64,000 nucleotides of DNA, from positions 13,826,001 through 13,890,000 of the forward strand of contig NC_134482.1 in NCBI RefSeq assembly GCF_964194025.1, read 5' to 3'. Below are positions 6,761 to 48,200 of the stretch, piece by piece. Position 1 is the first letter of the stretch, and each line of letters opens with the position of its first letter. The position numbers and the translations under genes are program-made. The notes under the pieces were generated by a model. The model did not search any database. It was not told the origin of the DNA and was given only the letters and a program-made list of their open reading frames with translations. This DNA comes from Convolutriloba macropyga. Taxonomy: Eukaryota.

Positions 6761-8299
6761 TATCATGGGAAAAAGCAACTCAAAACCAGCCTCTAAGCTT
6801 TATATATTTTTCTCGGAATGATAACTGCTCATTCAAAAAACAAACTGGATCTTGTCTACTTTTTAAAATCAAAAGAAACATTTTTCAAAGATATCCACAG
6901 AATTGAAATCTAAACGCCTTTGTTAATATTGTTGATAATTAAACGATAATTAACTAATAATGTTCATAGGCATGACTCGACAATAAGTCACAAGTGAAGG
7001 AGATAAAAAAATGTACTAAAGAGTGCTACAACCTGGATTTCAAATCTGAAACGGAATTTGAAACAAAACCAACACTTTTAAAATTACACTTTCTAAGACA
7101 TTACAATAAAATACACGACTGATTTCAGCTAATTGTTTCAAAAGAGGGTAATTGTAGCAAACTGATAACATGTTGAAGAAAATATTACCCGTCAAACTAT
7201 CCGAGTAAAATTACACATAAATCAAAATGGATTAGTAAGGACTGACAATACTTTTGTTTTCATTGAACAAAATTTCTTTACAGCTTTTTGGTTAAAATGT
7301 AGCCAAAATATAGAAACTTTATGTATCCCTTTAAGAATTTGCTACACAGAGGAAAACAAAACAAACTGAAGTGGTCTTTAACCCTGAAGATCAAATTGGT
7401 AACCTTTTTCTACTACTATAAGGACTGCTAATATTTACTCTTGAGCTCTGTGTCCGGCACCGCTCTAGTTGTGTTGTTGAAGATTTTATTAATTTTCCGC
7501 TGCATATGATCACTATCGGAAACGGTTGTCTAGCAGGAACTGCAGCACCACCATGATCTGATACTAACTCTGATAACGATAACACCTGAAATCCCAGAAT
7601 TTAGCGTAGATTCTTATTCCAATTTCCCACGCTTGAACTTAAAATAAATCCTAACGATATGACGCTCACAAACGAGGAATCAATTGGTATTGTTGCATGA
7701 TAATATCAGCAACACTATTAGTGAACACCGTAAGAGTTTTCACCGTCGGTGACTTATTGCAATGTTTATCCGGATTCGAAGACCGATTATCTGTTATTTT
7801 TCCCAGTGCTTTGGTTAACCCAACGTCTTTACGAGTCTTAGAACGTTCAACACTTTTGTCATCAACAAAAAGCAAAAACTCATATCACAGAGGAAAAGAA
7901 AAAACCCTGGTACCATCAACAACTCACACAAGTGCGCTCATCAGAAGAAACTAGTTTAGTTTTCTTCGATTTGTACTTGTCAAGAAAAAAAACAACCAAC
8001 ATAACAAGTTGCATTGAAACGTCCAACGAATTGGAGGAGAAGGTCTCAGAAGAGAAACCAACACAAATTGCCCAGGAAACGGCCGTCAAAAAACAAGAAC
8101 CAGAAGAAAAAGAAGTGAAGGTGAATCTACTTTAACTCTTACTAGTCCCCTGCTTTGGTAACTTCATGGAACTTTTCTGCTCCGGTGAAGTCTGGGTGGA
8201 ATGTTTGCCACCAATAACGACTACAAGTATGAGACAAATAAACTCTACCTCTGGACATGAACCAGAAGGATGGATATGTAAAAAATGCCGCAAAACATT

Positions 8300-15130: not shown

Positions 15131-15367
15131 ATTACCTTTAATAAAATGTTTTGGAAAATTATGAGGGGGAGCATTTAATTTTGACCGCTTTTCATTATTA
15201 CTGTTATTATTGTTTGAGAAGCTGATCTAAAATGGCGGAAATTCTGCTGAAGTCAAATGATACTTGTGCACCCAGGCTGATGTCAATTATTTCTATTTTA
15301 ATTCTTGATAGTGGCATACATCAACTCCTAATGTGGTTAGTTGCTAAAACACTAAGTCAAATATAAG

Positions 15368-15980
15368 TGTAGTAAACCATAGAACTTATTGTATGACATA
15401 TTGAACGCACAATTAGAAGTTTTCACAACAAAGGGGAGAACAAACAGAGATGGTTACTAAGCGTAAACCGGATTGTAACAATATAAAGAAAGTATCATAA
15501 ATGATGGAAATCATCACGGAGTTTCATCTCGACGCGAGACGTCAATGAATGTTTGTTCTTGATGGAATTCGTCAGGCAGGTAAACTTGTTATCTGTTAGT
15601 TTAACTAAAAGGAACCCGTGCGGTAGAAAGTAACGACGAGAAAATCACAAAGAGATTAACGAAAATGGGCAAAAGTACCTAAGAATAATCAACCATTGAT
15701 AGGACCGAAACCAAAGACAATAATAAAAACTGAACGTCATAAAATTGAGCTGCCTTTCGTGGCTGCTTTTTTCAAATAGTTTTTCATCTTCTCATCTGTT
15801 AAAACTCATTGTATTCCAATCACTAATTCTAACTCTGTATTAAAAAGTTTGATTATTACATCTTCATAATTAATTTAAAGTCCTATACTAAGAAAATTTT
15901 CATCAGTAATCTTGAGGTTCAAAGTGCTTAAGAAACCCCCCAACCGAAACCGATACCGTACACAGTGCACGGATATTACA
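15368..15980 (+). repeat. 5' LTR
   Basis: TG...CA termini (TGTAGT...ATTACA); colinear with 26134-27048. Confidence 0.9.
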
Positions 15981-15981
15981 C

Positions 15982-15995
15982 TGGTGACAGAGATT
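15982..15995 (+). promoter_or_regulatory. Primer-binding site
   Basis: TGGTGACAGAG starts 1 nt after the LTR end (TGG complementary to tRNA CCA). Confidence 0.75.
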
Positions 15996-16823
15996 TTAAA
16001 AAATTTAACATTTTGAAAACTTTAACAAATTTGTCGGTAGGAAGATGCAAATAAAAAGCACTTGCACTCAAGAACTCGAGATTTGAATAAATCCCGAGAT
16101 AAATACACAAAATACAAACAAGATTTGGTATAACAAATAATCAATTTTCATCAATTTCCACCAAATTTTGTGTGAGTCAGTTGTAGAAGTCACAGCGTAA
16201 TCAGTCGCAGGAAATTAGTTTTCACAAGTGAGAATTTTGTCGCGTGTGGCTAATTATTACTCGTTGTTGGAGAGAGAAAATTCCTTGTGTAAAAAGAGCG
16301 CATCAGACCAAGTGAATTGATATAGAGAGTTTCCTCTAGTTGTCTTCGTTGATAATTGAAGTTGGTTGCCACTGCATTCGTCTTTTTTGTCTCAGAAATG
16401 CTTTTCCTTTCGATCTTGGTTAATTAATTGACTTGTAGTAAAGCACCTAATATCATTCTTGTCGTAATTACGAAAAAATATATATTATAAACATTAATAA
16501 AACAGGACAAATCAATTTCAGCTAAAATCATATTAAAATACTAAAGAAAAGTTAGGTGGGACAGTCATCTATAAGAGTGTAAACAAAAACTTCTTTTAAA
16601 TTAAGGAGAAAAATAAGTAAAAAGGAAATACCATATCAAAATAAGCGTTAGGTTTTGTAACCAAAAATTTTAAACAATAAAAAAAGGTGCTATAGAAATT
16701 CAAAGGTAAAAAGAAAAACACCTTCCAGTGACTATCTACTTGGTAATTATTTTATAGAAACTATTATTTTCAACAACTAAACAAAGTTTTAAAAGGGTTA
16801 CAATACAAGTAGGGGAACAGTAA

Positions 16824-17500
16824 AATGGCAAGAGGCTCGACCTCTAGAATGCTATTACCGGAAGCGTTTACGCGTTCAAATGACTTGGAAGGCTACATGA
16901 CGCATTTTGAGCTATAGGCGGAACTACAAAAGTGGGAAAGTACAGAAGAAGATCCAGCCGGCGAATTTCATGAACGGCCGCATTACCATGGAGTTCTATC
17001 GCACTCTACCGCGAGCTACAAGAGAAAACAATGATGATTGCGTTAAAGCTTTCCGAGAACACTATAGTCAAAAAACGGTCGTTTTCCAGGGACGGCTAGC
17101 TCTCCGCGTACAGCAACCAGGGAAAAAACTGACCGATTTTTGGTAGATCCGGGATGAAACAACAGATTTTGGTAGAGGCTGTCACGAAGCTTGTGAACCA
17201 ATTGTCAGTAGATGACAAACAGCGAAAAAAACTGTGGAAACTAAGCTATGGAGCGATGTAGTTCCCCGGGACGGTGGGGTGACAACAGACGTGATAGAGG
17301 ACAGCAACAAGATCGTGGGTTCAACGAGCCGCGGCAATTTCCAACATCAGGATCTGCTCACCAAGACAGATCTTTCGGAAGAGATGAACCGTCTAGAAAG
17401 AACGACAGGCAGGGTTTCAAGTGCAGAGCCTGTTGAAAAGAAGGACACATTTGGTGGAATTGTCGAAATTGTTGTCTATATGAAAACTCCCAACACTTGA
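16824..17500 (+). pseudogene. gag: gag remnant
   Basis: MARGSTSRMLLPEAFTRSNDLEGYMTHFEL*AELQKW N-terminus; zinc knuckle FKCRAC*KEGHIWWNC at ~17415-17465. Confidence 0.75.
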
Positions 17501-17559
17501 AAGGAAACTACCCTTTCAAAAAGAAAACCACCAAGAACTGTAATGTCATTAGAGTTTTT

Positions 17560-20500
17560 TCTACAAACACAATTAAATATCCAAACCCAGAAATTATACC
17601 TGATTGGAACAGATGCGTGGGATTAATAGAGAGTGGAAGTTGTATATCGTTTTTGAGCTGGTCCACATACGAAAAACTGGGCAAACCGAGAATTGTGCAA
17701 ACAAACACAAAAATAGTGTTAACAGCCAATAACTCAGCTGTCAAAATAATAGGGAGAGTAACGCTGTTGCCACAGTTGCAACCAAGATTACCGGAGCATG
17801 AACAGGAATTTGTTATAACTGCAGACGAAGGTATAGAATGTCTGCTGGGAATTGATTTCCTGAAAACCAATAAATGTGTATTGAACTTACACGAAAGAGA
17901 AACTATACAGCAGTCACTTTAAAACTTCAATACCTCTTACCACAGAGAGAACGCAAGGTGTTCAGGTTTTTGGCATTGCGGAACAAATTTTTTTATACAG
18001 AGTAAAAACGAAAGTCTGATGAGAGTTAGACTAGCTGCCGAAAACAGAGAACAAATTCCGGAAATGGAAGGATTGGTGAAAGCAATTGAAAATTTTGAAA
18101 TAAAGACTGATTTGTTTTTAGCCGCCTGTATGATATCAATGAAAGGTGGTTCAAGTTTAACAAAAAGTGTTAATTATAACGAATGCACCACTGGCCGTGC
18201 ATAAAAGCATTAAAGTAAGAACCTATCTTGAAAACAAACAAAACTTAGTAGTGAATAGAATTTTCACAAGTCAAAAAAAGACACATTGGAAACTTTTCAA
18301 ATGGGAAAATTCGCAAATTTGGAAAGTTCTAATCTAAATAACCAGCAGAAAGAGAAAATACAGGAACTGTTCATGAGACATCAACAGGTCTTCTCCTAAA
18401 ACTCGAATGACTTAGGATATTGTGACAAAATTATACACCAAATTAAACTCAACAAATATGCACAGCTGGTCAGAAGAAGTTGTTGCAGTATGAGTTTTGA
18501 TAAAAGAAAAGCCTTGAAAAATTTTTTCGAAGATTTGGTTGATGCAACATTAACTGAACCAACCCATTCGTATTGGGCAGCACCATAATTATTGGTGTAA
18601 TAGAAAGATTGGAGCTAAAGACTAATAGTAGATTACTGAGGTTTGCACAAACAAATCAAGAAGAAAACCAGTTGGCCGCTACCAAGGATAAATGACGTTA
18701 TTGACACTCTAGACGGAATTGTTCCTTTTCTAATATCGATTTGACATCGCCATTTTTTCAAATGACGCTGAATGAAAAGTCGCAGAAGTTGACAGCTTCT
18801 GTAACTCCAACAGGACTCTACAAGTGGAAGAGACTATCCATCGATTTGGCGTCACCGCCAGGAGATTTCAAAATTTTTTTGGAATTGATCATGGCGGGAC
18901 TCGCCTATGAAGTGACTTTTGTATAATTGGATGAGAAAATTATCTTCTGTAGATCATTTAAGGACCATCTCAGCCGTCTAATTCTCGTACTTGGACAATT
19001 TAAAGACGCTGGATTGAAAATCAAAAGGCTCAAAATAAAGATTTTTCAGGAAAATTTCATTTCCTGGGACCCATTGTATCAAAGAAAAGGCGTAGAAGTT
19101 GATCCAGAGAAAGTAGCCGCAGTAAGTAAAATGAAAATCCACAAACAATGAAATGATTGATAGCTGTATTAGGACTAGTTGGTTTTTCTAGAAGATTCAT
19201 ACAAGATTTTGAAAAAATAGCAGTGCCGCTTTATAAGCTATTAAACAAAAAAACGTTTTTATGGGAGCAAACAGGTTGAATCAGCAGTTGAACAACTAAA
19301 ACAAACACTACACAAAGCACCAATTTTGAGTTATTCGAATATGGATCCCCATACGTTACCCACCAACGTCTCTCTGTTTGACATTGGCGCAACTGTTTCC
19401 CAAAGATAACAATGGGGTGAAAGAGTTATTGCATACGCAAGCAAAACGCTCAGCAAAATTCAACGAAACTATTCTGACAAAACGAAAACTTTTGCAATAG
19501 TTTATTCCACTCAACACTTCAGAAATTTTCTTCTGGGACAAAAGTTTTTAATTTTTACCGATCATAGGGCCCTCAGGTGGTCATATAGTTTTAAGGAACC
19601 AGACAGATTATTGGCCGGATGGATAGAAAAGCTCGAACAGTTTGATTTTGAAATCAAACACGAAGGGTTAAAGAAGATCCCTCACGCAGGCTGTCTGACG
19701 CGAGTTCCACAGACTGAAGACCAAGTCAAAGACTGCGATCGAGTGAGCCAAGTAAATACAGAAGACCAAAATATTTGTTCCATTGGACTAGGGAAATCTG
19801 TTGAGCAACTAGTTGAACATCAGAAAAATGCAGCCGACCTAATTTATTAAGAAACTGGATTGAGAACGGGGAACAACCTCAAATAAAAAACATGACAGGA
19901 GCCTCTAGGGAACTGTGGAAACTTTGGACTGATTTCAGAAACCTACGAAATGAAAACGATCTAATTAAGAGACAGAAACGTATTGACAAATTTAACAACT
20001 TAACAGAAATATTCATTCAGAGATCATTTGTAAAAGAAATTCAACCTTTCCCTGATGATAAAGGCGGACATTTTGTAGGGCTAAGACATTTGATCGGGTT
20101 CGAAAACGATTCTACTGGCACGGGAGGTGAAAAGATGTCCACAAGTGGGTAAGCTCTCGCGAAGTATGCTGTCAAAAGAAGTCTTCACGCCAGAAACATA
20201 TACGCAGACTGAGAACGTGGAAACCAAGTCACCCATTTTGACAAGATGCCTTGGACATCATGGGAACTTTACCCGAGCCAAGTGAAAACAAATACATTCC
20301 CTTAGTTGGAGATCAGTTTACAAAAATGTATGAAGCAATTCCCATGAACAGCCATGAAGCTTCAAAGGTAGCTAAGGCTTTCGTAAACGTATGAGTTTCA
20401 AGGTTTGGTTTTCCGGCAAATCTCCTTTGCAACAAGGGCAGTACCTTTATGTCGAATCTTTTTGAGAACGTGCGTAAAAAGCTGGGTATTAACAGGATAT

Positions 20501-21100
20501 CAACAACAGCTTAACATCCTTAAGGAAACACAATGATAGGGCGCACCAGTCGCACAATCAAAGAGAGTCTAACAAAAAGTGGTTGAACATCACAACACCT
20601 GGAGCGACTACCTTCCGCCAGTTATGATTGATTACAGATCATCAATTCACTCTGTTACCAAGTACAGCCAATTTTATCTCCTTTCTGGACAATCATGCGC
20701 ACTGCTGATTGATTGCATCTATCAAACAGTACAAACCAAATTCTACACGTTCTTGAGTGACTACGTTGAATGCTTGACAGGCGAACTACAAACGTGCCAT
20801 GATACGGGAAAGCATGGATGTGGAGGAAGAATGACAAAAAACATACTATGATCGTAGCACATTTGGACCAAAATATGAAGTAGGTGATTTAGTAGTGAAG
20901 TTCAACCTCACAATGAAGACTGGCCAGACAAAAAAAATTAAATCTTTTCACAGTGGACCGCAGGTAATACGTGAATTAGCCAATGATCTAAACTTTGTTA
21001 TTGAAGATGAGAAAACAAAAAAAACAAAAGGTTCACTACGATCGACTCAAACTTTTTATCAGTAGATGTGCTACCATTGATAAAAAAAGAAACTAAGAAG
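17560..21100 (+). pseudogene. pol: pol remnant (aspartic protease, RT, RNase H, integrase)
   Basis: PR LIESGSCIS...LLGIDFL; RT WAAPIILV, RLIVDY, WPLPRIND, G.EVDPEKV; RH IAYASK, TDHRALRW, GWIEKLEQFDFEIKH; IN H..GGHF, LDIMG.LP, WSDYLPPVMIDYRSSIHS. Many stops and frameshifts. Confidence 0.92.
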
Positions 21101-21612
21101 GCAAAATGTGAGCCGAGAATACCACAAAATGACTTTACGGAGGTTAAAGATTTTGTGGAAATTGAAGTATTCACTCCAAAAATGAATGACACAGAAACAA
21201 GAGAATTTAATCCTGCAGGGAATAACACTCAAATTAACTCTAGTACTTAAACTAACAATGAGACAGTCAAAGAAGATTTGTTTGAAACACCAATGGGTGG
21301 GAGTATCAATAAATACTAACACAAACAACAAGAGCAGAAGCACAATGATACCTGCGCCTAAAGTAGCTACACAACAGAGGGAAATAGCCTGGCGGCAACA
21401 TACGAAAAGAGTGAAGGCAAGGAATTTCCAAACAGAAGCACGTCTTCTGCTTCGCAAAATCTTACCAAACGACGATTTCAAAAAAAAAGTCCGTCGGGAA
21501 TAAAAAGACCACGGAAACTCAATGATTATTTTCTTCTCAAGGATAACGATTCAGATGAGAAATTTGAAAATGACGTATTTTCGTAATCAGGTGATACGGC
21601 AAAATGCAGAGT

Positions 21613-24600
21613 ATGTGGAACCCACATTGAAACGTGCAGCTGAACTGCAAACTTCTCCAATTGGTTAGCATATCAGGTTCTTCACAATCCTTAGAGATTG
21701 TGCGGTTTGATTTTGAGAATATTCTGCAGACGCAAAAGTTTGCCATTTCGGAACCAACGAAATGAGAAACGTCACAAATAAATGAGGAGCAGGTAAGCAA
21801 ATGAGGACTCATCAACGCCGAGAGCAGCATGAATAAACTAAAATACTGCATGTAGAGAGCTGCATATACGGCAGCTGTGCTGAAAAAAAACTGGTTGGTA
21901 TGACGACGCAACTTACTTAAACAGTAAATCACAAATAATTCCAGCGTTTTACGCAATAAAAGAATCAGTCTTATGGCAGGCACAAAAAGCACGGTTACCG
22001 GGTCTTGTTGACTTCAATTTCAATGCTCCCAAAAAAATCATTAATGAGATGAATGTTGGCCGAACCGACGCAGAGTTTGTTCAGAAGGTATCAAAAACAT
22101 TCATGAGAGGCGGAGATGAGACAGTAGTGAATTATGTTTACCCCGTGGATTGGATCAATCCAAAAGTTGAGACAAGGAGAAGTAAAATCATGTTAAATGC
22201 TGAGATTTTCATGGGGACTATGTTCATTGGAACCAGGGAAGAAAATGAAGGTACATGGTTATACTTCAAACACCCTCTGAATCAGGAGAACCTGCCTTGT
22301 TATATCAAGGAGACACATTTTAAATAGCTTCAGTATAATATTAGTTTGACCAAGACAGAAAACTAAATATCTTAACGATAATTTAATTTTCAGAGTCGAT
22401 ACCATCAAAAATATTCCGCGCTAGAAATAAAAATTAATTGACGAGCAAATTAGACAGAAAAAAAATTAGTTGTTCAGTTGAAAAACAGGACAAAACAGAT
22501 AGACAATTTCCAGCTTTTCGAAACAATCCAAAGAAATTTGTTTTAGAATCCAAAAACTTTGACGGCCACGGAACAAAATTTCTCACCAACAAATATATCT
22601 GAGACAGATCCCAGGGACCTAAAACTCGACCAACTTTTTGTTTGGGATTTTTGAGGTGTGTTTGAAAATTTGAAACAAACAGAGTTATCAAATTGTAACA
22701 TAGAAAAACTGCACAGAGCTATGATTTTAACAAAACCAATTATCGGAAACTCAAAACAAAATTAACCAAATCAACAAAACGCTCTGGGTATACCCGCACA
22801 AAGAGCAAGAGAAATACTTTATATCCATAGGTGCGCTAAAGTTATCGTACATGTTGTCGAAAAACGGTTTTGTTCCGAGCAAGTACTAATTAGGGTGTCT
22901 TCTGACAACAGTTCAGAAGAAATTAGATACATGGGCCCTATTTCTTGAGTATTCTACAGAAATTTCACACTAATCAATTGCAGCCCCATGTACCCGAACG
23001 CTCTTGAATCGCGGAATGGAAAATGGATAACATATGGCCGACAAATACAACTGATTGATAAACCCAATGATATGCCTCATTAAAGATTTAACGTCATTTG
23101 GTCATTTGGTTAACGTCATGACGACGGAACCCACATTGAAACGTGCAGCTGAGCTGCAAACTTCTCCAATTGGTTAGCATATCAGGTTCCTCACAATCCT
23201 TAGAGATTGTGCGGTTTGATTTTGAGAATATTCTGCAGACGCAAAAGTTTGCCATTTCGGAACCAACGAAATGAGAAACGTTACAAATAAATGAGGAGCA
23301 GGTAAGCAAATGAGGACTCATCAACGCCGAGAGCAGCATGAATAAACTAAAATACTGCATGTACAGAGCTGCATATACGGCAGCTGTGCTGAAAAAAAAC
23401 TGGTTGGTATGACGACGCAACTTACTTAAACAGTAAATCACAAATAATTCCAGCGTTTTACGCAATAAAAGAATCAGTCTTATGGCAGGCACAAAAAGCA
23501 CGGTTACCGGGTCTTGTTGACTTCAATTTCAATGCTCCCAAAAAAATCATTAATGAGATGAATGTTGGCCGAACCGACGCAGAGTTTGTTCAGAAGGTAT
23601 CAAAAACATTCATGAGAGGCGGAGATGAGACAGTAGTGAATTATGTTTACCCCGTGGATTGGATCAATCCAAAAGTTGAGACAAGGAGAAGTAAAATCAT
23701 GTTAAATGCTGAGATTTTCATGGGGACTATGTTCATTGAAACCAGGGAAGAAAATGAAGGTACATGGTTATACTTCAAACACCCTCTGAATCAGGAGAAC
23801 CTGCCTTGTTATATCAAGGAGACACATTTTAAATAGCTTCAGTATAATATTAGTTTGACCAAGACAGAAAACTAAATATCTTAACGATAATTTAATTTTC
23901 AGAGTCGATACCAGCAAAAATATTCCGCGCTAGAAATAAAAATTAATTGACGAGCAAATTAGACAGAAAAAAATTAGTTGTTCAGTTGAAAAACAGGACA
24001 AAACAGATAGACAATTTCCAGCTTTTCGAAACAACCCAAAGAAATTTGTTTTAGAATCCAAAAACTTTGACGGCCACGGAACAAAATTTCTCACCAACAA
24101 ATATATCTGAGACAGATCCCAGGGACCTAAAACTCGACCAACTTTTTGTTTGGGATTTTTGAGGTGTGTTTGAAAATTTGAAACAAACAGAGTTATCAAA
24201 TTGTAACATAGAAAAACTGCACAGAGCTATGATTTTAACAAAACCAATTAACGGAAACTCAAAACAAAATTAACCAAGTCAACAAAACGCTCTGGGTATA
24301 CACGCACAAAGAGCAAGAGAAATACTTTATATCCATAGGTGCGCTAAAGTTATCGTACATGTTGTCGAAAAACGGTTTTGTTCCGAGCAAGTACTAATTA
24401 GGGTGTCTTCTGACAACAGTTCAGAAGAAATTAGATACATGGGCCCTATTTCTTGAGTATTCTACAGAAATTTCACACTAATCAATTGCAACCCCATGTA
24501 CCCGAACGCTCTTGAATCGCGGAATGGAAAATGGATAACATATGGCCGACAAATACAACTGATTGATAAACCCAATGATATGCCTCATTAAAGATTTAAC

Positions 24601-25060
24601 GTCATTTGGTCAACTTCCGCACCAATGGAAGGGTTTTTTAATGAAAAAAACCTGGAACTCAGCAAGAAGTTCCAAAGATTAAGGCATTCGAGAAAAACGA
24701 AAACAGGATGAGAAATTTTCCTTGCACAACGAGATTTGTATGAATATGAGACTTTAGAGTATTTTAACACGGACTTGAAATAAAATCATCAGCGACATGA
24801 ACTGCTAATTTTTGAATACTTTGATAGTGAAGTGAAACAAATGTGACATGCGGCCAGGGAAATGACCATCAGTTTGATGACTATCTTTATTGTATCTAAA
24901 ATCATATTTTGTTTGGTACGTGTGTTTCTTTCAGTCGATATGCTACGCAGTGGCACCAATCCTGTGATTGCGCTGCAACCCATCAACCCAATGGGGAAAC
25001 TAGGTCATTTTCATCATCTAAAACAACGTTCTAAAGAACTAAAATTGACAAGAAAGAGAA
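21613..25060 (+). pseudogene. env: Decayed envelope glycoprotein, herpes gB/chuvirus-like class III fusogen type (5' ~1.5 kb duplicated)
   Basis: Signal-peptide-like start, then IVRFDFEN..TQKFAISEPTK*E (cf. GYDC...T.SL.EP..C). Later VIVHVVEKRFCSEQVLI...RYMGPIS..YRNFTLINCSPMYP...NGKWI...KP..MP...W....GFF, and a TM segment ISLMTIFIVSKIIFCLV at ~24868. About 650 codons once the duplication is removed. Confidence 0.6.
21617..24612 (+). repeat. Near-identical direct tandem duplication (21617-23104 / 23126-24612)
   Basis: Offset 1509 bp, only scattered substitutions, and a 21-nt filler at the junction. Confidence 0.95.
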
Positions 25061-25288
25061 CGATCGCACGGTTTGATGGTAATCAAAACCTTGAAGTTAT
25101 AAAAACAAAAAAGGCTAAATCTGTTTTTAATTTTTTTATTCAAGATCGTTGAATTCAAGATCGGTAATACAAACATTGAAGTTATAAAAGCAAAAAAGGC
25201 TGTACCAGACATGACAAAAATTGAGATTGACGCCTTAGGTTAATTTAAGTGTATTATATGTAGGAGTGGTAAAGCCAACAATTGGCGA

Positions 25289-26096
25289 TTGTTACTACTA
25301 CCTAGCCGAGTTGTTCGATGTCAAGTCAATAGTCAGGCACCAAGTGTATTGGATTGTTGGAATAACTTCAAATATACCCCAAGATACGTGGTGCCATTGA
25401 CGAAAATACAACCACCAAATATAGTGGATAGAGCCGCAGTTTGTGTTATGGAGTTAAACGTAATGCATCAGCGAATTGAGGAACAGCAAAAGAAGATTCA
25501 CAACAGCGAAGTGCTGGGAAACAGCTCCTGCAGTTAAAATTTGAAGGTCAAAAGTTAATTAACCAATTACTTGACAACAAACGACTGCTTGATTACAATG
25601 GGAATCAGCAGGAGTCCTACAGGAGGCAGGTTAAAATATTGAAAAAAGAGTTGAAGGAGATTACGAATGTAGCCGAAACAAAGTCAAGAGAATGTATCGC
25701 TCTAGTGGATGAGCGGGAGTGTTTTTCTCGGGAGTTAGAGAAGGCCGAGTTAGATATCAGAAAACTAGGGAGCAGGCTAAGAACAGAGCAGACCTCAAAG
25801 AAGGTCATCCAGAGGAGGCTGGAGGCAATCAATGGAGACAGTCGACCTCCAAATTTTTTTGAGCTGCTATTCTTGCCACTTGGGGCAAATACCAGCACTA
25901 TCCAGCAACGTTTCAAAAAGTTGTCAATGCTCTGTCATCCAGGCCCGTTTCGTCGGGAGGACTTTTTCAAATTTATTCTTCATGAGAAACAAATAAGGAA
26001 AACGAGGAGGCCCGTAATAATTATGACAAGTACGGGATTGAAAAAGCAGAGGAATATTTGAACTCAAAAATGGAACCTGGAAGCTCTTGCTTGTGA
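25289..26096 (+). pseudogene. Coiled-coil + DnaJ (J-domain) ORF inside the Gypsy element, with about 2 frameshifts
   Basis: Heptad-rich KKELKEITNVAE...ELEKAELDIRKL, then NFFELLFLPLGANTSTIQQRFKKLSMLCHPG...EDFFKFI and, in a shifted frame, ENEEARNNYDKYGIEKAEEYL. Stop at 26096, 25 nt before the PPT. Confidence 0.8.
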
Positions 26097-26133
26097 GTTA
26101 GTGGAACACTCAAATTTTCTAAAAAAGAGGCAG

Positions 26134-27048
26134 TGTAGTAAACCATAGAAATTAATCTATGACATGCTCATTAAATGAATATTGAACGCATTATTCAAAA
26201 TTTTCAAAATAAAGGGGAGAACAAAAAGATAACCGGATTTTGACCATATAAAAACAGCATATGAAAACAATATATAAATATTGATGGGAATCATCACGGA
26301 ATTTCATCCTTACGGGAGACGTCAAAGAATGTTCTTGACGGGGTTCTTCAGGCAGGTAAACATTATCTGCTGGTTTAACTAACAGGGTCCCGTGCGGTAG
26401 AAAACAACTATGAGAAAATCTCAAAGAGATTAGAGAAATTGGTTAAAATAGCCTCAGCCTAAGAATAATCAACCATGGATACGACCGAAACCAAAGAACA
26501 CGACCGAAAGAAGTGTAATACGACCGAAACATGAATACGACCGAAACAAGTGTAAATAAAATGTTGTAAATGTGATTTAAACTGTAAATAAGTACAAAAA
26601 TTCGAGTTTATTTTAACTCATTTCTTAGAATTATTGTCAAAGACAAGTTTATATTTTTTGTAAATGTTTCATTTAATTTTTAAACCTGACGATGAACGCA
26701 ATGTTCGAAAACGTTCCTTTTAGTTTATCAATTTAAGTTTTAATTGACAATTACTTCTTTGCACCAAAGACCATACTAAAAACTAAAACCTCATATAATT
26801 GAGCTGCCTTCTTTAAATAGTTTTTCATCTTCTCATCTGTTGAAACTTCCTGTATTCCAATCAATAATTCTAACTCTGTATTAAAACGTTTGAATATTAC
26901 GTCTTCATAAATAAATTAAAGTCTTAAATAAAATTCTTCAAAATTAAATTAAAGTCATGAAATAATTGTTTCATGAGTAATCTCGAGGTTTAAAGTGCTT
27001 AAAAACCCCAACCCACACCGTAACCGTACACATTGCACGAATATTACC
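26134..27048 (+). repeat. 3' LTR (diverged, with a 265-bp insertion)
   Basis: Preceded by PPT AAAAAAGAGGCAG; colinear with the 5' LTR apart from 26498-26762. Confidence 0.9.
26682..26720 (+). ncRNA. Minimal hammerhead ribozyme motif (Penelope-like), one stem I mismatch
   Basis: aaac CTGACGA t GAAC-gcaat-GTTC GAAA ACGT TC cttt. Confidence 0.55.
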
Positions 27049-27091
27049 TAAACACTAATATAAAATGTAACTTAAAGTTATTCTATTTACA

Positions 27092-45229: not shown

Positions 45230-48200
45230 TTTTTTACAGAAAAAATGGTGCATGAGCTTCTACAAAAATAATTTATTGGCAGCGCCTAAAGTTGGCTACC
45301 ATCGTCCCTTTCCCACTAATATATAATCAAACGGAGAATTGCTTTCGAGGACACAATAATGACACAACACTTGACCGCCTCCGGTCAATACTTGACTGGA
45401 AAAAATTATGCAAAAAAAATTTGTTGACATATTTGACTTTTCTATTGATTGGTTATTCTCACGTTTTTGAGAAATGCGCCTTAATTTCGAAACCATAGTG
45501 AAACTATTTGGCGTCCCTCTAACAGCCGGTTATCCGCATTGAGCAGGGTACATTAAAATTGATTCCTTGTTTGTCATTTGAAAGTTTTGTCAGTCGTTAA
45601 TTGGTTACGTACACAAGCGGGCGGCTTCTGAGTTTTCTGCCAATTTCGGATTGTTTCTTAGTCTTCTGGTATTTTGTACAATTTTTCTTTGTCAGCTGAA
45701 AACCAGCATTTGATTGAACTACTTATATCGCTCCTCGAGGAGCCGATATGTACATCTTAGTATTTCACTGATTACTTATTGTAATTGAACAATATCATAT
45801 TTGCAGCTTTTTATCGGTGTTTAGAAAGCGTTCGATTTTTGCAGGAAACGTTGATCTGTTGTTGAGGAGTTCACAGTTAGACGGTGCTTTTCTGATTAAC
45901 AATAACAGAGTGCAAGGCTTCTATCAGATCATTTTCTAACTCATATCTATATCATGACTGCGTAAACATAAGTGCGTCATCTTTGGTACTGCATTAATGG
46001 ATAACCATTTGGTGTTTTTCATCTTACATCATTGGCATATAAATCGAATAGTAGTGCTCAGAGTATTGTTCCTCGTGGTACACCTTGATAAAGTTAAATC
46101 AAGTCCGATTCATTGCCGGTAGCTCTTGTTTTCTTGTGCTGTTCGGACAAGTAGTCAAGTGTCAATATTTGATTCATTGCGCTGAATCTTTTTTCCTCAA
46201 GCTTCGAAATCAAAATGTTGTTATCAATTGAATTAAACGCTTTAGACAGATATAGTAATGCATTTGTTTTATATTTCTTCAATTTGAAATCTGAGGTTTT
46301 CAGTGCTGAAAATTAGAGTATCCATCTTATTTTTTCAATCGAAAACCAAATTAAGTTTCTGGGGAATTTTTTTTCTAATTAAAATTTGAACTATTTGATC
46401 TCTAAGTAAAATCATTTGAAAACTCCAGAAAGTGAACTAGTTATTGGTATAGTTCTGTAATTTTCAGGATTTATGCTAGCTTGATTTTTGAGTAGTGGCG
46501 TAGTGTCGGCTTACTTTATGATACTGGAAGTATTTTACCTCGATAGGGTGCATTAATACATCATTGAATTCTATAAAGAGCGCAAGCAGGGTTATCTGTG
46601 GGTCCTATCGGTTCAAAGTACGTAAGCGTTTTGAAATAATGTAAAACTTCTTTTGATGTGATAAAGAGAACTAACTGATTTTCTCTTATATATTTTATCC
46701 GATTTAATCGGCCTGCTTTTACCAAAGTAAGCACGTAATTTAGAGAATCGGAAAGACACGTTCACTATTTGTTTGCTGTCATACAGAGATTCACCAGAAG
46801 ATTTTTATGGCTGGAAATTTTGCTATTATCTACAGTTGTGTTTCGAGTACCGTTATTGAGAGGCCATTTTTCGTGTCGAGATAGATTTTTTGTTTGGAAA
46901 GGTAATTATTTTTAAAACACGCATAAAGCTAGAGCACATCACAAAAAGACAGAGACCAACAAATCAATCTTTTTTCGGCAAAGCAAATTATTCAATCATT
47001 GATTTCACATCAGAACTAAGGCTTTGTGACTATAATTTCACATACAATATGGAGCATGCAGTAAAATATGCTCAGTTCAACTCAACTTTGTCTTCTATTG
47101 TTCAAAAACTATGCTTTTGAATGATAGAAGACAAAGTTGAGTTGAACTGTGCATATTTTTCTGCATGCTTCGTTTTGTGTGTGAAATTCTAGTCACAAAG
47201 CCTTAGTTCCGATGTGAAATCGTTGATTGAATCAGTTAACTTGCCGAAAAATTTGATTATTGTTTCTACTTTTTGTAATGCGATCCTGTTTTATTGTGCC
47301 TATTTGGTACGGTGATCAATTTTATTTTCAAAATCAAATATGTGAACATTTTTGTCGATTGGGTAATTACCTTCCGTTATATAAACAATGAGGTGTTTTT
47401 TTCGTGCTATTTTTTGCTTTCCAACTTTTGGATCATAATGGATGAAAAATGTATCTGAACCGTTTTTGTTTTTGTCGTTCAAGTAATTGATTAATAGCCG
47501 CGGTCAGCCTCTCAAATGGCTATTATTTGGTCGCTCTCCTTTTTTAACTGGCCTTTTGATCACGTTTTTCTTTTTACATAAGTCATTTCTAACTTACCTC
47601 GCTCACTGTTTCAACTGAGGGGATTCTAAATTCTTTCACGCATGGAATTACGCCATGTAGTGAATACGTGAATATCGAAAGAGCAAAATCTAAAGAAACG
47701 GGATAAACCGATAAAGCTCGGTCATTAAGACGGAAAGCATTAGGTTATTAAAGTTCATTAGAGCGATTGATAGCTGATATTAGTATTAAGCTTAATACCC
47801 TTCAGTTTAGAAGCTGAAGCAAGCATGAGTTCGGAATTTAACTGAAACTGCAAACTGAGTTAGAACAATTTTTGAAACTTAGGAAAAAAATTTTGTCGAT
47901 TTCTATCTCTTTTTAATGGCCGCCCTCATCTTCTCAGCCGGCTATTATAGCGCTCCTAATTTTTTTTTACTTCGTTAAACTTTTTTTCGCTTTACCCATT
48001 TTGCCGCTTTTTCGACATTTTGCGTGAAATCTGTGACTTCTCTGGGCTAGTTTCACTCTTCTGTCATTCTGCTCAAAGTCCTTTTAAACAGCAGCTGCTC
48101 AGCAAAGCAATTCAAAATGAAGGGAGTCAGTATAAAAAAGTCAGAAATTGAAACGGGATAAACCCATAAAGCCCATTTTGAGATGCCCGGTACTTGAACT

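Follow-up and report, generated by a model that had tools for sequence, protein, structure and literature searches.

Gypsy elements with a gB-type env gene are widespread and have been described as 'ancient errantiviruses' (Chary and Hayashi, eLife 2026; PMC13524379). They comprise Gag-Pol-Env with the Ty3/gypsy order of pol domains, a class III chuvirus/gB-like env, and multiple young copies. The pipeline used to collect them sought three ORFs, and the words DnaJ, J-domain, and chaperone are absent from the main text of that report, as is DnaJ from seven supplementary files. The LTR element Anakin (PMC7642597; named in PMC12440569) likewise possesses a captured class III chuvirus glycoprotein, and no J gene is mentioned for it in the passages concerned. 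Bdelloid rotifer LTR elements (Rodriguez et al. 2017; PMC5408684) have additional captured ORFs ahead of the 3′ LTR; their ORF3 is typically expressed from spliced messages, encodes a GDSL esterase, a DEDDy exonuclease, or a transmembrane (TM) protein, and replaces env, and neither DnaJ nor chaperone occurs in the text of that article. Polyomavirus T antigen and Rki of phage RB43 are viral class C J proteins and work through the Hsp70 of the host (PMC13254874).

The window analysed here is a stretch of 64,000 nucleotides from the 1.18 Gb genome of Convolutriloba macropyga (contig NC_134482.1, positions 13,826,001 to 13,890,000, forward strand), and it contains one LTR element at 15366–27056, in the order gag-pol, class III fusion env (PF24664), ORF4, polypurine tract (PPT), and LTR (Table 1). 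The element thus resembles the published errantiviruses in gene content, pol order, env type, and the presence of multiple young copies, but differs from those described (PMC13524379) in having a fourth, J-domain gene behind env. It is assigned to Ty3/Gypsy, unlike the BEL/Pao element Anakin, on the order of its domains and on Pfam families, in part shared by BEL/Pao elements; by its gB-type env, and as far as genes alone define the group, it is an errantivirus in the broad sense. ORF4 is intronless and lies shortly 5′ of the PPT and 3′ LTR, which confirms a first-pass annotation of the locus. That annotation had overlooked the env gene, the N-terminal barrel of ORF4, and two further families of the element. 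Its 'accessory-gene slot' had to be redrawn, since ORF4 comes after env and does not replace it, in contrast to the rotifer ORF3.

Table 1. Features of the LTR element, in window coordinates.
Feature	Position	Strand	Basis or remark
Likely target-site duplication, 5′ copy (AATATA)	15360..15365		identical 6 bases at both LTR ends; AT-rich
5′ LTR	15366..15982	+	AGT...ACT ends; aligned to 3′ LTR
Primer-binding site	15982..15992	+	overlaps last LTR base
gag, decayed	16824..17500	+	translation; sisters with zf-CCHC PF00098
pol (protease, RT, RNase H, integrase), decayed	17500..21560	+	
env, class III (chuvirus/gB-like) fusion glycoprotein, decayed	21590..25240	+	sister env matches PF24664
Predicted splice acceptor region ahead of ORF4	25240..25265	+	branch-point-like motif and AG
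ORF4 N-terminal SH3/Tudor-like beta-barrel	25266..25425	+	start codon lost; frameshift near 25375
ORF4 long helix / coiled coil	25426..25845	+	frameshift near 25520
ORF4 J domain and tail	25846..26096	+	HPG 25936–25944; frameshift near 25984
5-bp stem, 3-nt loop motif preceding PPT	26098..26112	+	GAGTG-NNN-CACTC
Polypurine tract	26121..26131	+	purine run abutting 3′ LTR, window and sisters
3′ LTR	26132..27056	+	about 270 extra bases relative to 5′ LTR
Likely target-site duplication, 3′ copy	27057..27062		

The element has two LTRs, a primer-binding site (PBS), a PPT, gag, and pol; the window pol matches aspartyl protease and RT_RNaseH, and the full PR-RT-RH-IN order is seen in sister copies. 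Its LTRs are identical in 504 of 579 alignment columns (87%), and the target-site duplication is called from this AT-rich copy alone, with its length not established from other copies. Drosophila errantiviruses have LTR ends AGT...ACT and a PBS overlapping the last LTR base. The window LTRs also have AGT...ACT termini instead of TG...CA, and their PBS overlap recalls these elements. The PBS sequence TGG(C/T)GACAG abuts the LTR in all three families, designated A (that of the window), B, and C. Just ahead of the PPT, families A and B retain the stem but differ in its loop, and C lacks the motif, which possibly acts in cis in RNA processing or in the priming of the plus strand. About 1.5 kb covering the end of pol and the start of env is duplicated in tandem (21617–23104 and 23126–24612, 99.2% identical), and a duplication of similar period, repeated several times, is present in a family C copy (L246, 683–6862, oriented).

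A DNA search with the window ORF recovered at least 39 other full matches at 79%–84%, collinear with it (40 of 577 candidates scored). ORF4 lies directly 5′ of the 3′ LTR in 20 of 20 family A loci, 19 of which have env sequence upstream of it and 17 RT or integrase. It is therefore not a host-gene insertion: a processed insertion of this kind, which had been entertained earlier, was rejected on this collinearity and position, the segment recurring in sisters without an insertion signature of its own. The LTR pairs of family A are 98.5%–99.8% identical in young copies (three pairs) and 87%–96% in older ones (four pairs). Against PF24664, the Monjiviricetes fusion glycoprotein, family A env scores 52.7 bits (cut-off 27). 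A public protein cluster of ORF4 has 81 members, none of the 40 inspected bearing a name. More family A and family B copies (L007/L035 and L076/L086) lie within about 140 kb of the window element on the same contig. At several loci (L032, 7271–9310, and L087, 7584–9612, oriented; L125, L137, and L138), there are deleted derivatives with little beyond ORF4 between two LTRs, or ORF4 and LTR form tandem arrays.

A search of the genome with PF00226 gave 910 candidates, 150 of which were scored, and revealed family B, which has separate gag and pol frames, env (33.9 bits against PF24664, cut-off 27), and an ORF4 that spans some 300 codons and ends in HPDAGG. Family C was reached through a weak match of the barrel profile. 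Both families share the layout and the ORF4 of family A. Between families, identity is 75%–77% in RT, 27%–38% in env, 39%–47% in the barrel, 22%–34% in the coil, and 32%–36% in the J domain. The env of families A and C has a C-terminal hydrophobic segment. Most family B copies have an upstream ATG out of frame with ORF4, and a short tandem repeat stands between env and ORF4 in this family (L081–L090, about 8060–8160). A fourth J-bearing family was sought and rejected: ten divergent matches were all family C-like, and 20 odd DnaJ loci resolved into 17 J ORFs of family A or B, two host-like genes, and one that returned no row.

The predicted ORF4 protein consists of an SH3/Tudor-like barrel, a helix of 147 residues, and a C-terminal J domain. 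The earlier description of a J domain placed C-terminal to a coiled coil, unlike class A/B DnaJ proteins, thus stands, albeit with a helix longer than the 100 or so residues first given. Only PF00226 passes the Pfam cut-off in ORF4: against a threshold of 27.8 bits, sisters score 48.8 and 52 bits in family A, 60.5 in B, and 41.4 and 32.3 in C. This supports the proposed J-domain accessory gene of an LTR element and disposes of one refuting result that the first-pass annotation had named, the want of a PF00226 match, whereas the window copy itself does not reach the cut-off (see below). A model of a sister protein (13 sequences; mean pLDDT 76.5) comprises a small beta domain, a helix at 51–197, and the J domain, whose helices at 206–278 superpose on the Sis1 J domain with an rmsd of 2.2 over 70 columns (Foldseek probability 1.00, E 0.004). 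By sequence, the closest solved structures are the cytosolic J domains of Sis1, DNAJC5, and DNAJA1 (E 6e-15 to 1e-12). Class A and B DnaJ proteins are defined by an N-terminal J domain, a G/F region, and beta-sandwich domains, and class C proteins by a J domain anywhere alongside unrelated domains (PMC13254874). With its C-terminal J domain, ORF4 falls outside the former and within the latter; HPD predominance (see below) and a helical J fold accompany the profile scores in the sisters.

Folded alone, the barrel reached a pLDDT of 86.7 in the best model and 51–76 in the other four. Its fold matches PWWP, Tudor, and KOW domains (Z 7.3–8.1, rmsd 1.3–3.3 over 48–55 residues), and these and SH3 fit about equally, with no clear best match. 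Its sequence matched no Tudor/PWWP or other reader family in Pfam or the PDB. The integrase C-terminal domain was suggested as the source of the barrel by visual inspection and by a weak match to PF22938 (E 0.14), but was rejected, profile comparison giving a probability below 1%, with 11 of 150 shuffles equally good.

Selection was gauged from net divergence, that is, the between-subfamily distance minus the mean within-group pairwise distance, which strips most post-insertion decay. Net dN/dS of ORF4 is 0.11 in family A (bootstrap 0.07–0.17 on a subset of pairs; 20 old versus 10 young copies, the latter being loci taken from the DnaJ match list by a 283-codon open frame), 0.10 in family B (11 versus 3 divergent copies), and 0.19 in family C (15 versus 6 copies, with 10 intermediates omitted and a heterogeneous second group). 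Within family A ORF4, the values are 0.03 for the barrel, 0.14 for the coil, and 0.08 for the J domain, as against 0.12 for env, 0.08 for gag, 0.02 for RT, and 0.03 for integrase. The barrel is the most constrained part of ORF4 in A and also in C (0.01), and the J domain ranges from 0.05 to 0.12 across families. Because net dN/dS between subfamilies is low, ORF4 was a working gene in each lineage; on these estimates, purifying selection has kept it, to an extent like env.

The window holds a decayed copy of this real accessory gene under selection. Compared with natural open sisters, this ORF4, starting at about 25266, has lost the start codon and carries three frameshifting indels (Table 1) and an in-frame deletion near 25835, rather than the single frameshift first reported. 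The J-like residues then listed—helix I–II, HPG, EDFFKFI, and R..YDKYG—are all in the translation, split by the last of these frameshifts. The in-frame piece scores 17 bits against PF00226 (E 0.0066). In a read-through test with a profile built from 11 host J domains, the J domain with an X at the break scores 20.7 bits and its separate pieces 14.4 and 7.3. Relative to old sisters, window ORF4 has a dN of 0.157 and a dS of 0.280, near the values of its dead pol genes. The stop noted at the outset, some 25 nt 5′ of the PPT, is correct for the window, where it is the read-through stop of this copy, but is not a family feature, since sisters stop about 40 nt before the PPT.

In a J-domain tree of 73 columns, the five element J domains lie on one side of a branch (95/90), apart from 12 J domains of host type and from 24 viral ones, the first in a set of 54 distinct sequences, although branches are long and most deep forks open; the comparison with host DnaJ genes that had been called for was thereby made. 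The simplest reading is that ORF4 was gained once, before families A, B, and C diverged. In all 54 distinct viral J ORFs (IMG/VR), HPD is followed by 79 or more residues, compared with about 45 in ORF4. The J domain of polyomavirus T antigen is N-terminal. Protein searches for relatives returned same-family copies and two generic J proteins but no other barrel-coil-J protein, and scans of viral and metagenome collections matched essentially the J domain alone (at least 80 loci each), again with no barrel-coil-J arrangement. The literature searched, with Repbase, subscription journals, and bioRxiv supplements outside its scope, contained no J-domain gene in an LTR element; PMC8616336, PMC9940879, and PMC3852528 concern, in the parts consulted, host J proteins and not element genes.

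Other env-bearing lineages of the same genome provide a comparison. The envs of the J-bearing families group together against those of the other lineages (100/100), and an ORF4 profile matched none of 20 loci of the latter (RT about 30% identical). These lineages multiply without a J gene, which is therefore not a general requirement. Behind env, they often have an ORF of their own, among them ORFs of 284 and 320 aa with coiled-coil tails, one of 611 aa that matches nothing in Pfam, and a RING-like one of 165 aa; a fourth gene seems common among env-bearing LTR lineages in this genome.

The preferred reading, held as somewhat probable, is that ORF4 is the element's own Hsp70 co-chaperone, acting on element nucleoprotein complexes. 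The messenger for ORF4 would be a spliced subgenomic RNA, in which a GTGAGT donor 200–330 nt after the PBS is joined to an acceptor just before ORF4. Such a donor is present 3′ of the PBS in 11 of 11 loci listed, from all three families, and copies of families A and C have a branch-point-like motif and an AG 2–8 nt before the ORF4 start. Spliced retro-copies were sought with three junction patterns, which matched 0, 13, and 3 times; no match had the letters expected in the middle, a result that does not count against splicing. ORF4 of families A, B, and C has no hydrophobic segment, and the protein would for this reason be soluble and cytosolic or nuclear. It would probably dimerise through the coil into a rod with the barrel at one end and the J domains at the other. 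The barrel would then grip element nucleoprotein complexes—the client being the least certain step—while the J domain would recruit cytosolic Hsp70 and stimulate its ATP hydrolysis, so that Hsp70 may remodel the client as particles assemble or uncoat or as the element integrates. As in T antigen and Rki, a parasite-encoded HPD J domain is combined with a non-chaperone targeting part, and the logic is likely the same, although those proteins come from DNA viruses and ORF4 from an LTR element (PMC13254874).

Ranked behind remodelling of the element's own nucleoprotein is counter-silencing, in which the barrel would bind either silenced chromatin or a silencing complex with small RNA, and Hsp70, brought in by the J domain, would dismantle it. 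This reading is rather doubtful, albeit consistent with the strong constraint on the barrel in families A and C and with its PWWP and Tudor reader neighbours, some of them bound to PIWI peptides. Precedents exist in SILENZIO, a plant module of reader and J domain that acts on transposon chromatin, there as a repressor (PMC8616336), and in T antigen, which takes apart Rb-E2F with Hsp70 (reference cited in PMC13254874). By fold, however, Tudor cannot be told from KOW or SH3, and no reader family is matched in sequence. Antagonists of host defence often evolve fast, whereas ORF4 is as conserved as env. Third and unlikely is a role in envelope function or transport, with the coil binding the cytosolic Env tail or a motor adaptor and Hsp70 moving or budding particles. 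The position of ORF4 directly behind env in three families, the grouping of their envs, and the coiled-coil ORFs behind env in other lineages speak for such a role; adjacency is, however, expected of any late-acquired gene, and the barrel resembles a nucleic-acid or peptide binder more than a membrane adaptor.

Two further readings, a decoy and a passenger, are all but excluded. The HPG of the window might be a selected decoy, a pseudo-J protein blocking Hsp70; J-like proteins with altered HPD do exist (PMC13254874). HPD, however, is the state of 62 of the 78 other copies: 22 of 29 among the old A copies, 10 of 10 among the young ones, all 15 in B, and 15 of 24 in C. This speaks to the question of ancestry put by the first-pass annotation. 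The young A and B counts are inflated because those copies were picked by J-domain score; the old A set, which contains two near-duplicate pairs, and the C set were chosen without it. HPG occurs in none of the 78, the non-HPD states being scattered single decays (one C copy was unreadable), and H, P, and D are invariant in the three-family alignment, so ORF4 does not fit type IV pseudo-J proteins, in which HPD is replaced lineage-wide. Given these counts, the decoy is unsupported and HPG is, as far as the copies compared can tell, private decay; a selected decoy is very improbable, all the more in a copy with a lost start codon, three frameshifts, and the divergence given above. Post-insertion decay had been the other suggestion made at the outset and is borne out, but not as a lone GAC>GGC change: 7 of the 11 bases at 25941–25951 deviate from the usual sister sequence, a patch found in 0 of 29 sisters. 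Eight bases of the patch are repeated 67 nt further downstream, the only other place in the window where they occur, which hints, post hoc, at templated repair. Public contigs equal the window exactly over 25250–25807 and 26036–26200; after a filter that drops contigs, none covered 25840–26020, where the patch lies, and an assembly error there would escape this comparison. No more credible is that the J segment is a passenger, a recently captured and drifting fragment of a processed host DnaJ gene: its homology to the J domains of cellular proteins is plain, yet it is present in three families at the low identity and under the constraint reported above, and is not nested among the 12 sampled host J domains.

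Elsewhere in the window, a minus-strand ORF at 53–880 with a match to the Pox_A32 packaging ATPase (24.9 bits, E 1.7e-5, above the cut-off) is accompanied by further minus-strand ORFs up to 2556, which suggests a Polinton- or adintovirus-like element. The region 29000–64000 is dense in dispersed repeats on one strand, including a 52-nt unit in up to 22 copies, and has a 137-bp inverted repeat at 46971–47251; the ORFs tested from this region had no Pfam matches.

Env-bearing Gypsy elements are themselves already published; what appears new, in one genome and against the literature searched, is the J-domain accessory gene. A wider conjecture, offered tentatively from the analysis as a whole, is that an old enveloped Gypsy lineage is the first reverse-transcribing element with its own Hsp70 co-chaperone and aims Hsp70 through a reader-like barrel, possibly at host silencing complexes. 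Since the ORF4 protein would be small and soluble, its Hsp70 activity and its client are directly testable. For annotation, among the 910 DnaJ candidates of this genome, most inspected matches below the top host genes are element copies. To our knowledge, retroelements have been thought to borrow host chaperones, not to encode their regulators. If the reading proposed here is true, the strategy of T antigen would extend to reverse-transcribing elements, and invertebrate Gypsy elements would be 'complex' in the retroviral sense.
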